64,000 nt of DNA from an uncultured virus (IMG/VR IMGVR_UViG_2875450446_000004) (lineage: Duplodnaviria > Heunggongvirae > Uroviricota > Caudoviricetes). A program made the translations under genes and the position numbers. The stretch lies in the IMG/VR virus record IMGVR_UViG_2875450446_000004; one strand, given 5' to 3'. Positions within the stretch are counted from its first letter, which is position 1. Each line of letters begins with the position of its first letter. Shown piece by piece: positions 29,896-32,355 of the stretch. The notes beneath the pieces are model-generated. The model searched no databases and was not told the origin of the DNA. It worked only from the letters and a program-made list of their open reading frames with translations.

Positions 29896-30285
29896 ATGGC
29901 ACTTACGTGGATTTCAAACGACTTTGATCGCAATACCAAAGCGTATATAACAATCGAAAAGCAACGACGTTTATTTATTTCGGCTGGTGCGCGGCGCGTC
30001 ATCGGACTGCCTACGGACGGACCGTTTTATTTATCCGTCGCATATGACGCGGCTGAAAAACGCATTGTTGTCGGCAAGCCCGAACTCGTTAAGCAGCCGG
30101 ACGTCAAACCGTTCAAATTCGATAAGCGCGGCAATGTTTCGGCATGGCCGTTCTTGCGTAAAATCGGCATTGATTTCGATAAGCTTCCGCAACGCTATTA
30201 TTTGATCGGCGATGGGGAAGCGTCCAAACAACCGTACCTGGCCTATCCGAAAGGCACGTATGCGTTTCAGTTAGACGAAAGCTGA
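29896..30285 (+). CDS. Hypothetical protein with its own SigA promoter
   Basis: AAGGAG RBS; TTGACT-N18-TATACT at 29835-29864. Confidence 0.7.
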   Translation: MALTWISNDFDRNTKAYITIEKQRRLFISAGARRVIGLPTDGPFYLSVAYDAAEKRIVVGKPELVKQPDVKPFKFDKRGNVSAWPFLRKIGIDFDKLPQRYYLIGDGEASKQPYLAYPKGTYAFQLDES

Positions 30286-31352
30286 TCCGCAAGCGCTCGC
30301 CCTACATACCACGCAACACGCGAAGCGATTCCGTTTCCAACGATCCGATACTGCGCCGATAAGGAGATATCGTCTGGCAGGACGTAAGTATCTGGCGCAG
30401 ATTGGATTCGGAGACATTCGCGGACGGTGAAACGGCGAGGTGCTTCGGTCGGATGAATCGGCTGGCCGCTGTTGTGATGCGCTGGAAACGTATTCGACGG
30501 TTTATCTAGCGATTGTACGCGATTGGCTTGATCGTAAGTGTATTCGCTTTTTGGCGTCCAATAAGATTTTTCATCGTGGTTAGCGTAAAACAAACCGTAA
30601 GGAACTCCTTTGCTCATAACTGCCGGAATAGTTCGCGAAGGCTCACCCATCGTAACCGGACGATTTTTCGCAACTGATGCCGGATTGCGGTCTAAGTATG
30701 CGATTTGCTTATCGTTTAGCTGAACGCCCGGTTCCGGCAAATCTCCGATAACATCCCGCAATACTCGCGTCTGATAATCGCCTTCTAACGGCTTCGGAAA
30801 CTCGAAAGTGAATCCGAGGTCTTTTCGTATTCCGACAATGAACACGCGCTCTCGCTTCTGGGCCACTCCGTAGTCCCACGCGCTCAGCACCTTCCAACTA
30901 ATCTCGTAACCTATTTCGTTAAATTTTTCGATAAGAGCATCGAATGTTGGACGATGTCGCTTCGTAATAAGCCCCTTCACGTTTTCGAATACGAAGGCTT
31001 TCGGCTTCTTGCGATCAATGATTTCGAGGTAACGGAAGACTAATTTACCGCGTTCTCCGTTTGCCCCTTCGCCTTTACCCGCAACCGAGAAGTCTTGGCA
31101 TGGCGGTCCGCCGAAGATTACATCTGTGTCCGGCAAGCTATCGATATCTACAGCGCTAATATCCGACTGTTCTACGTAATCACCGAAGTTGTGGCGGTAG
31201 GCTTTGACGGCATTCTTATCGAAGTCCAGCGCCTTTACAATATCGTAGCCGGCCGCTTTAAATCCAATTGCGCCGAGTCCTCCTCCGCAGAATAGTTCGA
31301 GTACCGTCAGTCCATTTGCCGGCAGTTGCGGCGTTAAGTTAAAGTCGCCCAT
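30267..31352 (-). CDS. DNA (cytosine-5)-methyltransferase core with two TRD-like segments
   Basis: Motifs FCGGG, PPCQ, ENV, QKRER, RRFTVREC, GNG. Confidence 0.95.
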   Translation of the reverse strand: MGDFNLTPQLPANGLTVLELFCGGGLGAIGFKAAGYDIVKALDFDKNAVKAYRHNFGDYVEQSDISAVDIDSLPDTDVIFGGPPCQDFSVAGKGEGANGERGKLVFRYLEIIDRKKPKAFVFENVKGLITKRHRPTFDALIEKFNEIGYEISWKVLSAWDYGVAQKRERVFIVGIRKDLGFTFEFPKPLEGDYQTRVLRDVIGDLPEPGVQLNDKQIAYLDRNPASVAKNRPVTMGEPSRTIPAVMSKGVPYGLFYANHDEKSYWTPKSEYTYDQANRVQSLDKPSNTFPAHHNSGQPIHPTEAPRRFTVRECLRIQSAPDTYVLPDDISLSAQYRIVGNGIASRVAWYVGRALADQLSSN

Positions 31353-31369
31353 ATATTCGCTCCTTTCGG

Positions 31370-31798
31370 TTAATGGTTCGGGATGGATTTCGGCGTGATC
31401 CAGCCGATCGTGCTGACCGTTCGCGCTGGTTTAAACCAATCCGCAACATATGCCCGTTGGTTATACATCCCGTCCTTTAATTTCACGGTAGTTGCCTTCG
31501 TTTGAATGTGATTAGGAATCTCGTTCATGCACTCTCCCCTTTCAATCGGGTCAGTCGGATGTAAATGACACGTAGCTTTCGCCATTACCGAGGCCGTAAT
31601 CGTTAAAGCCGGCTCATCCCAAGACATCTTACGAAGATATGTCGTTTGACCTCCTCCGCTATTAAACGCCCCTTTCATAAACGCCTTCTGCTCTTCTTCC
31701 GGAAGACTGCGCCAGTTACCACCATCCGGAATCTTGTGCGCATAGGGTTTCTCATCATTTCGTAACCCGTATCCGTAATGATTCGGAATATTCGTCAC
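31370..31798 (-). CDS. Two stand-alone C5-MTase target-recognition domains (frameshifted N-terminal part of the MTase)
   Basis: LRKMSWDEPALTITA and ADWFKPARTVST TRD motifs; the alternative frame from about 31410 reads in frame into the MTase. Confidence 0.8.
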   Translation of the reverse strand: MTNIPNHYGYGLRNDEKPYAHKIPDGGNWRSLPEEEQKAFMKGAFNSGGGQTTYLRKMSWDEPALTITASVMAKATCHLHPTDPIERGECMNEIPNHIQTKATTVKLKDGMYNQRAYVADWFKPARTVSTIGWITPKSIPNH

Positions 31799-32355
31799 TT
31801 CAACACCTCCGACATAATCGCGTCCAGCTTCTCGTACAACTCTTCCGGCTTGCCTGCGTTTTCTATTTCGTAATCAACTTCGAAACTGTTAACGGCAAGC
31901 TCAGTCGGATGCTCCAAGTCGGCGAGGTCGAATTGATCGCCGGCTTTTTTGGCGCGTTCAATGCGGAGCTCGGCCGGTGCTGTTATGCGGATAAATACGA
32001 AGCCTTCGTCCTTCAATCGCTTGTATTCGTTAGGCTGGCGGCAGTCATCGATGATCACGCGATTCTTTAGTGCCGTATTACCGCAGTCGCAAGGATGACG
32101 GTCGAGATAGGCGGCTATTTTCGGCATGAGAGCGTCGATCCATACGTCCTCTCCGAAGGCTTCCCGCGCCCACTGTCCGAACTTCTGATAATGAGCGCGC
32201 GGCTTCGGATTTCTCGGAACGTGAGGGAATGCGCGGTGGAATGCGTCCTTTAGTTCGTCGCCGAATGCGAACGGCTGGAAATCGTAGTGAAGCGAGATGT
32301 ATGATGCGGCCAGCGACTTGCCTGCGCGAAGTGGTGCGGTGAGGGCGATCTTCAT
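31795..32355 (-). CDS. Deoxynucleoside monophosphate kinase-like P-loop protein
   Basis: APLRAGKS, FAFGDELK, IIDDCRQPNE, HPTE. Confidence 0.85.
   Translation of the reverse strand: MKIALTAPLRAGKSLAASYISLHYDFQPFAFGDELKDAFHRAFPHVPRNPKPRAHYQKFGQWAREAFGEDVWIDALMPKIAAYLDRHPCDCGNTALKNRVIIDDCRQPNEYKRLKDEGFVFIRITAPAELRIERAKKAGDQFDLADLEHPTELAVNSFEVDYEIENAGKPEELYEKLDAIMSEVLK

Follow-up and report, generated by a model that had tools for sequence, protein, structure and literature searches.

Organization of the methyltransferase locus

The window analysed here is a 64,000-nt stretch of DNA from an uncultured virus (IMG/VR record IMGVR_UViG_2875450446_000004), which carries on its minus strand a 142-aa open reading frame (31798-31370) followed by a gene for a 361-aa C5-methyltransferase (31352-30267). 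The gene upstream of both (31795-32355, minus strand) encodes a dNMP kinase (PF21448, phrog_139); its TGA overlaps the GTG at 31798 that opens the 142-aa frame, and translational coupling of the kinase to the methyltransferase cassette through this overlap is probable. The SD of the GTG start lies at 31804-31810 and scores -13.4 kcal/mol.

The methyltransferase contains motifs I-X in order with the catalytic PC and ENV of C5-cytosine DNA methyltransferases (PF00145, E 1e-77). Motifs I-VIII (ELFCGGG, GGPPCQ with Cys85, ENV and QKRERVF) occupy 30738-31352, motifs IX-X and the stop codon lie at 30267-30440, and the variable region between them holds two TRD modules, unit 3 (module m2; 30588-30737) and unit 4 (m1; 30441-30587). 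Two N-terminal TRD modules precede this core on the same strand: unit 1 (m0; 31529-31798), an intact module of 90 aa whose homology to R-M TRDs places it in the GGNCC-core TRD class, and unit 2 (m6; 31353-31528), which is broken by a frameshift here and intact in the relatives L006, P0012, L044 and L053. The TRD motifs that an earlier note on this DNA had picked out (SWDEPALTIT, DWFKPARTVS, TMGEPSRTIP and SLDKPSNTFP) are each present where it had located them.

An internal SD in the linker between units 1 and 2 (31534-31542; -11.8 kcal/mol), found also in L026 and L030, precedes an ATG at 31528, and the end of unit 1, ERGECM, is encoded by AAAGGGGAG plus this ATG. A second internal SD, AAAGGAG at 31360-31366, which encodes E-R-S in fused alleles, precedes the core ATG at 31352. 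Relative to the natural fused allele of L006, a single base is missing between 31410 and 31409, and a premature TAA (31370-31372), located 3 nt ahead of the core SD, ends both the 142-aa product and a 52-aa product beginning at 31528. The -1 frame is open from 31432 on (its last stop is at 31433) and runs as DRLDHAEIHPEPLTERSEYM into ATG 31352, so that one added base would fuse the front units to the core, as had been read earlier from the letters.

No restriction endonuclease was found among the six flanking proteins scanned, and the methyltransferase is therefore treated here as an orphan phage enzyme. The neighbourhood is syntenic with that of Bacillus phage phi18-2 and with a 65-kb element of Bacillus paralicheniformis, and the protein-cluster members that bear names come from Bacillus species. 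A conserved convergent gene of 129 aa (phrog_18159; 29896-30285, plus strand) overlaps the 3' end of the methyltransferase gene by 19 nt, and phi18-2 and the B. paralicheniformis element have it too.

Relationship to known methyltransferases

A search with unit 4 led to Q60171 (CAA62381.1, AAA96793.1), annotated as 'm5C-multispecific methyltransferase [Geobacillus stearothermophilus]', which we take on the strength of this annotation to be M.phiBssHII. The window core and that of Q60171 share 56% identity over 289 aa, and Q60171 starts at a Met matching ATG 31352. Of the five variable-region modules of Q60171, the fourth shares 85% identity with unit 4 across 47 aa; the kinship to M.phiBssHII put forward in the earlier note is thus one of direct homology. 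M.phiBssHII is said to have one active N-terminal TRD, presumably of HaeII specificity, and two isoforms, as reportedly described by Sethmann et al. in 1999 under a title that speaks of TRDs at separated locations. The two enzymes have in common the core, the position of the internal start, similarly built tandem modules in the variable region, and unit 4. The window differs in having two front modules with a third nested start and two variable-region modules instead of five; its units 1-3 give short matches of 27-45% at most to the variable-region modules of Q60171, and its front slot, unlike that of M.phiBssHII, is severed by a frameshift. The Q60171 entry is without an N-terminal extension, so this comparison covers no front TRDs.

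The best phage matches are gp83 of phi18-2 and the first methylase of phi3T, the latter presumably M.phi3TII. Core homology with the N-terminal (F/Y)N(L/V)TPQ segment, together with tandem TRD modules (units 3 and 4) between motifs VIII and IX, places the window enzyme in the M.phi3TII/M.phiBssHII family. A TRD fused in frame ahead of motif I is missing from the window and present in 46 of the 51 loci with a detectable front cassette. The core of M.phi3TII shares 83.6% DNA identity with the window over half of the query. M.phi3TII and M.rho11sII are monospecific enzymes with the target TCGA; they differ from the window enzyme by the lack of a front cassette and by a single, different TRD. In phi18-2 gp83 (L001:3003-4256), front unit 1 is fused to the core and the variable region is the same as in the first phi3T methylase; as a protein of an isolated phage, it is a ready test case for a front TRD.

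Several other systems share single features with this one. The multispecific methyltransferases of SPbeta-like phages (M.SPRI, M.phi3TI, M.rho11sI and M.H2I) are also orphan phage enzymes with tandem exchangeable TRDs, according to PMC8936443, but they belong to another core lineage (that of the second phi3T methylase) and have TRDs in the variable region only. In the DoMo process of Type I and IIG systems, one TRD sequence occurs at two gene positions and copy number shifts via flanking-repeat recombination (PMC3077401); the process was reported there for S subunits, in a paper that mentions neither cytosine nor Bacillus, whereas here slot moves are rare on the tree. The naturally split M.AquI likewise has a TRD-bearing peptide apart from the catalytic one. 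In enzymes of the M.AquI type the split is conserved and the catalytic part is devoid of the TRD and of motifs IX-X, whereas the core at the present locus is complete and the splits in this family affect 5 of 51 loci at 4 places. M.EcoHK31I is another naturally split C5-methyltransferase.

Broad scans of genome and metagenome contigs gave mostly distant methyltransferases among the matches listed. Seven records of lytic Bastillevirinae (phiNIT1, SPG24 and five more; L004:2001-2091, L003:2001-2093), phages unrelated to the present one, contain a 90-bp methyltransferase remnant comprising SD, start and motif I, which is 85-91% identical to window positions 31365-31275 and lies between pieces of ribonucleotide reductase genes.

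Front units and modular architecture

The modular make-up of the family was examined in 113 of 120 cluster representatives that could be parsed, a sample biased toward the query. They display 77 architectures built from 37 module clusters (16 of them singletons, some being parsing artefacts), and 12 of the 21 multi-member clusters occur both before motif I and in the variable region. Copies in the front and canonical slots number 39 and 20 for unit 1, 4 and 6 for unit 2, 3 and 27 for unit 3, and 0 and 58 for unit 4. A front extension is present in 72 of the 113 representatives, nine of which have two or three front modules after removal of one over-extended call; the first front 'module' of P0053 and the only one of P0122 are over-extended gene calls. 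Fused alleles with all four units exist in nature (L006 and P0012), and in L053 units 1 and 2 have cleanly traded slots, unit 2 standing in front and unit 1 in the variable region; both the fused alleles and the TRD swaps that the earlier note had suggested looking for among homologues thus occur in nature. P0147, a member of 801 aa, combines one front module with about seven variable-region modules, and P0118 has related m5 modules in both slots, the front and inside copies forming two separate well-supported groups.

The front units are TRDs, as had been supposed, judging from sequence comparison: the same modules fill the canonical slot, unit 1 resembles GGNCC-type TRDs of R-M systems, and dN/dS is low. 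For unit 1 in the front slot dN/dS is 0.048 (13 distinct sequences, 77 non-independent pairs) versus 0.060 for the core, indicating that unit 1 is selected as a protein there. On the unit-1 tree, five changes of slot label are needed, at least two of them forced by well-supported branches, versus 16.1 with shuffled labels, and the trees of two other modules show one slot change each. This clustering of slot labels indicates that modules are commonly exchanged within a slot and move between slots now and again.

These data bear on the alternative that front cassettes serve chiefly as a silent store from which TRDs are copied into the canonical slot, fusion to the core being irrelevant. Modules common to both slots, the slot changes on the unit-1 tree and the tolerance of front-slot breaks (see below) would all suit such a store, which we nevertheless regard as very unlikely: the dN/dS value of the front slot speaks for selection at the protein level, and movement between slots is rare. 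The N-terminal TRD of M.phiBssHII, moreover, is said to be active.

Tandem front TRDs and a family-wide two-slot design with 77 architectures are new as far as a full-text literature search shows: limited largely to recent open-access papers, it found no account of tandem N-terminal TRDs or of slot exchange in the M.phi3TII/M.phiBssHII family. The N-terminal TRD of M.phiBssHII had stood as a one-off and can now be seen as part of this design. The front modules come from a pool of about 30 types that fill the canonical slot as well, a naturally occurring set of specificity parts for C5 methylation built around a single core.

Internal starts and nested isoforms

The two internal SDs of the window score -11.8 and -12.1 kcal/mol against an anti-SD motif, compared with -10.3 to -13.4 kcal/mol for six other gene starts, and both are stronger than the value at any of 60 start-like codons that lie in frame inside five genes (best -9.5). 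At the junction of cassette and core, an SD of -9.6 kcal/mol or stronger is retained in 46 of 47 fused loci before a start-like codon, which is ATG in 35 and ATA, ATC or CTG in 11 (best of 13 codon positions), while none of 33 junctions between variable-region modules has one (best of 7 positions). The junction SD persists in different codon phases in distant members. In a set of 27 Bacillus-type loci, all 26 junction Arg codons are AGG, compared with none of 240 conserved core Arg codons. The AGG bias and the retention of the SD argue for selection on the nucleotides, although shared descent and recombination at the linkers may account for part of this conservation, and the internal ribosome-binding site looks to be under selection.

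Nested isoforms from intact fused alleles are likely on these grounds. The earlier note had envisaged three isoforms with 4, 3 or 2 TRDs; this nested-start model is supported for fused alleles such as L006 by SD retention and AGG usage, and does not apply to the window, which encodes products of 142, 52 and 361 aa. Isoforms are not universal even among members with a front cassette, because the internal Met is missing in 9 of the 72 front-cassette representatives, L266 and L368 are without a usable internal start, and no clear start stands at the inner junctions in three two-unit cassettes of the Paenibacillus type. In ten Paenibacillus-type loci with a front cassette (L052, L086, L276, L279, L282, L283, L286, L289, L293 and L297) the aligned core start is ATT, ATA or GTA behind a retained SD, and in L278 and L288, which are without a front cassette, it is ATG; the non-ATG codons may be weak starts that tune the ratio of isoforms, or else decayed ones.

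Reality and nature of the frameshift

The deletion within unit 2 is real. All sampled words of the stretch are contained in 14 runs from 9 studies, each of which may be the source of the window itself, and the four runs compared (from 4 studies, word depth 68-273) are identical, without substitution or indel, this comparison being made on contigs, which drop rare variants. Exact copies of the 142-aa protein occur on 21 contigs, those of the core on 19; RNA runs contain just 18-36% of the sampled words. The same deletion is present in L005 and L024, where the core differs at 48 of 615 bases; L005 has no difference from the window across 869 bases of kinase and cassette, which implies that the split allele persisted long enough to recombine onto another core. 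That the gene is in truth fused, as in the majority of relatives, and looks split through faulty sequencing or assembly can be discounted almost entirely in view of these recurrences of the deletion.

Split and fused states, one base apart and both natural, could also be the two positions of a reversible switch (phase variation, ribosomal frameshifting or transcriptional slippage) that yields some fused enzyme. This is highly improbable. Positions 31800-31340 contain no homopolymer of 5 or more and, as the sole repeat, an ATATAT at the core start, so that the break lies in none of the tracts typical of phase-variable methyltransferases; the same interval, 31432-31373 included, is free of in-frame X XXY YYZ slippery heptamers, and a TTTAAAC at 31435 is out of register, a -1 shift there running into a TAA. 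The compared runs, within the limits of their contigs, are uniform. A search for promoters and terminators between cassette and core gave three promoter-like sites versus 2.6 expected, none of them in the cassette.

L006, moreover, is of another lineage and not a revertant. The window differs from L006 by 41 bases in unit 1 and by a further 13 in unit 2, whereas L007/L019, which is fused and has no unit 2, is one base away in unit 1; the window's cassette is therefore a recombinant. Unit 2 of the window has Phe and Ser substitutions absent from all 14 other unit-2 sequences, and unit 1 is intact, without unusual residues or decay. Because the break sits in no slippery or repeated sequence, the deletion is most likely a fixed loss-of-function allele rather than a switch. 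For the extra TRDs the earlier note had left open whether they are switched off, lost or acting in trans: loss fits best, and a reversible switching off is disfavoured by the lack of slippery or repeated sequence and by the two unique substitutions of unit 2.

Front-slot breaks among relatives

A front cassette is detectable in 51 of 72 loci; 46 of these are fused and 5 are split by 4 different mutations, each of the 5 with an intact core; the independent breaks are those of window/L024, L018, L086 and L297. Three of the 72 loci have a broken core. Breaks thus number 4 in 13.6 kb of front slot versus 3 in 72.9 kb of core (p 0.014, or 0.053 without the window mutation), a per-base excess that is suggestive only, the loci having been found via the core, which favours intact cores. 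L002, which has a second methylase nearby, and L083, L285 and L305, which reach contig ends, were not counted as broken cores. The 'fused' label of L304, which lies on the contig of L054, is unreliable, for its motif IV contains a long insertion (L304:1500-2590) that ends in HN before CQD and has homing-endonuclease-like sequence, probably an intein. Breaks of this kind suggest a cheap route by which a phage may drop methylation specificities while retaining the enzyme.

Stand-alone front-TRD proteins also occur. P0149 (90 aa) consists of the whole of unit 1 with the break in the last linker codons, and P0151 is a second example; P0149 and the core-only P0115 stem from ENA contigs of equal length and may thus be the two parts of one split locus.

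Such proteins, and the intact state of unit 1, raise the alternative that the window encodes a functional two-piece enzyme, in which the released 142-aa peptide (unit 1 with a dead tail) would work in trans on the core and keep a GGNCC-type specificity. Fragments of C5-methyltransferases complement each other (PMC5944983), and the split form is found widely and has also come to lie on a second core by recombination. We consider action in trans quite unlikely all the same: two of the four breaks (L018, at residue 70, and L297) cut through the TRD itself and could not act in trans, 46 of 51 front-cassette loci are fused, and with unit 1 just one base from the fused L007/L019 its intactness may only mean that the event is recent. 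Loss of function of the front slot is the most likely reading of the window allele, with the caveat that undecayed unit 1 is what a role in trans would also predict.

Structure models contribute little on this point. A model of the fused allele superimposes on M.HhaI with Z 31 and an rmsd of 2.0 A over 241 residues; its pLDDT is 67.5, with units 2-4 below 50, and the path of the front TRD to DNA is not visible in it. The 142-aa peptide modelled alone has a pLDDT of 34.1 and is uninformative. This peptide gave no sequence match in the PDB, and all structure matches in the Atlas were below 0.9.

Proposed model for the two-slot methyltransferases

We propose that the window encodes an orphan, likely multispecific anti-restriction C5-methyltransferase of a phi18-2-like temperate Bacillus phage, belonging to the two-slot family of M.phi3TII and M.phiBssHII, and that in this allele the front slot has been lost in a fixed manner and the core kept; we judge this reading of the comparisons to be likely. 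Enzymes of this family have two slots for TRDs: one is the canonical variable region, and the other, the front slot, lies ahead of the core and after the dNMP-kinase gene. The modules of the front slot are built like mini-genes without a stop codon, each consisting of SD, start, IPNH and TRD, and their reading frame continues through the SD and start that belong to the core, such that intact alleles would yield a long form with extra specificities and a short core form. M.phiBssHII is reportedly the sole experimental demonstration of such nested isoforms. The comparisons show that modules swap between phages, and sometimes between slots, a plausible route being recombination at the common linkers.

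In the window, translation from GTG 31798 would give unit 1 plus the broken unit 2 and end at the TAA of 31372, and translation from ATG 31528 would give the 52-aa stub. The single-base deletion would thereby uncouple both front TRDs, with loss of the specificities of units 1 and 2. With the ribosome halting 3 nt before the core SD, the 361-aa core is probably still made as an ordinary downstream gene and would methylate the targets of units 3 and 4. The split allele would then have become fixed and have spread with one prophage lineage.

A more far-reaching possibility is that the front slot has evolved as an expansion port, in which stacked TRD mini-genes with their own ribosome-binding sites form a ladder of isoforms and released TRDs still dock on the core in trans. 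This is unlikely on the present comparisons; if true, a TRD could pass between a fused and a free condition within a single system, and the window allele would represent a functional stage midway from multispecific enzymes of one chain to enzymes with separately encoded TRD libraries. The natural set of alleles, comprising the fused L006 and P0012, the split window, the one-unit phi18-2 gp83 and core-only forms, makes two questions directly testable, namely by what path a TRD attached to the wrong side of the enzyme gets to the DNA, and whether TRDs released from the chain act in trans.

Target specificity

Unit 1 is 35-42% identical to TRDs of methyltransferases encoded beside endonucleases of the Eco47II, TdeIII, PmeII, SinI and EcoO109I families, whose sites are GGNCC, GGWCC and RGGNCCY. 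Such endonucleases are present in six of six plasmid R-M loci examined (8 of 58 records were opened, the other two being without an endonuclease) and in eight of eight genome neighbours scanned (10 loci). The resemblance of unit 1 to TRDs of the Sau96I/SinI type (GGNCC/GGWCC), drawn in the earlier note, is thereby substantiated at the level of the GGNCC-core class; the recognition loops differ, and the exact site may differ as well. For units 2-4, the comparison with R-M neighbours gave no plasmid match and nothing meaningful in phages. Unit 4 was found in G001 only among 401 genomes, and its target should be that of the matching M.phiBssHII module. A single methyltransferase adjacent to a HaeII-family endonuclease was found among the 401 genomes, and no module matches the variable region of this one example.

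G001, the nearest of the genomes compared, has both a GGNCC-type R-M system (L366) and a prophage methyltransferase with a homologous TRD fused in front (L322). In the window GGNCC is under-represented (0.71), a value that is uninformative, many Bacillus restriction sites being likewise low and the comparison being made with no null model. Across the whole window, also counted without a null model, no CCTAGG, CTTAAG, GGGCCC or TCTAGA occurs and there is hardly any CTGCAG, CTCGAG or GCATGC, and this shortage points to restriction pressure.
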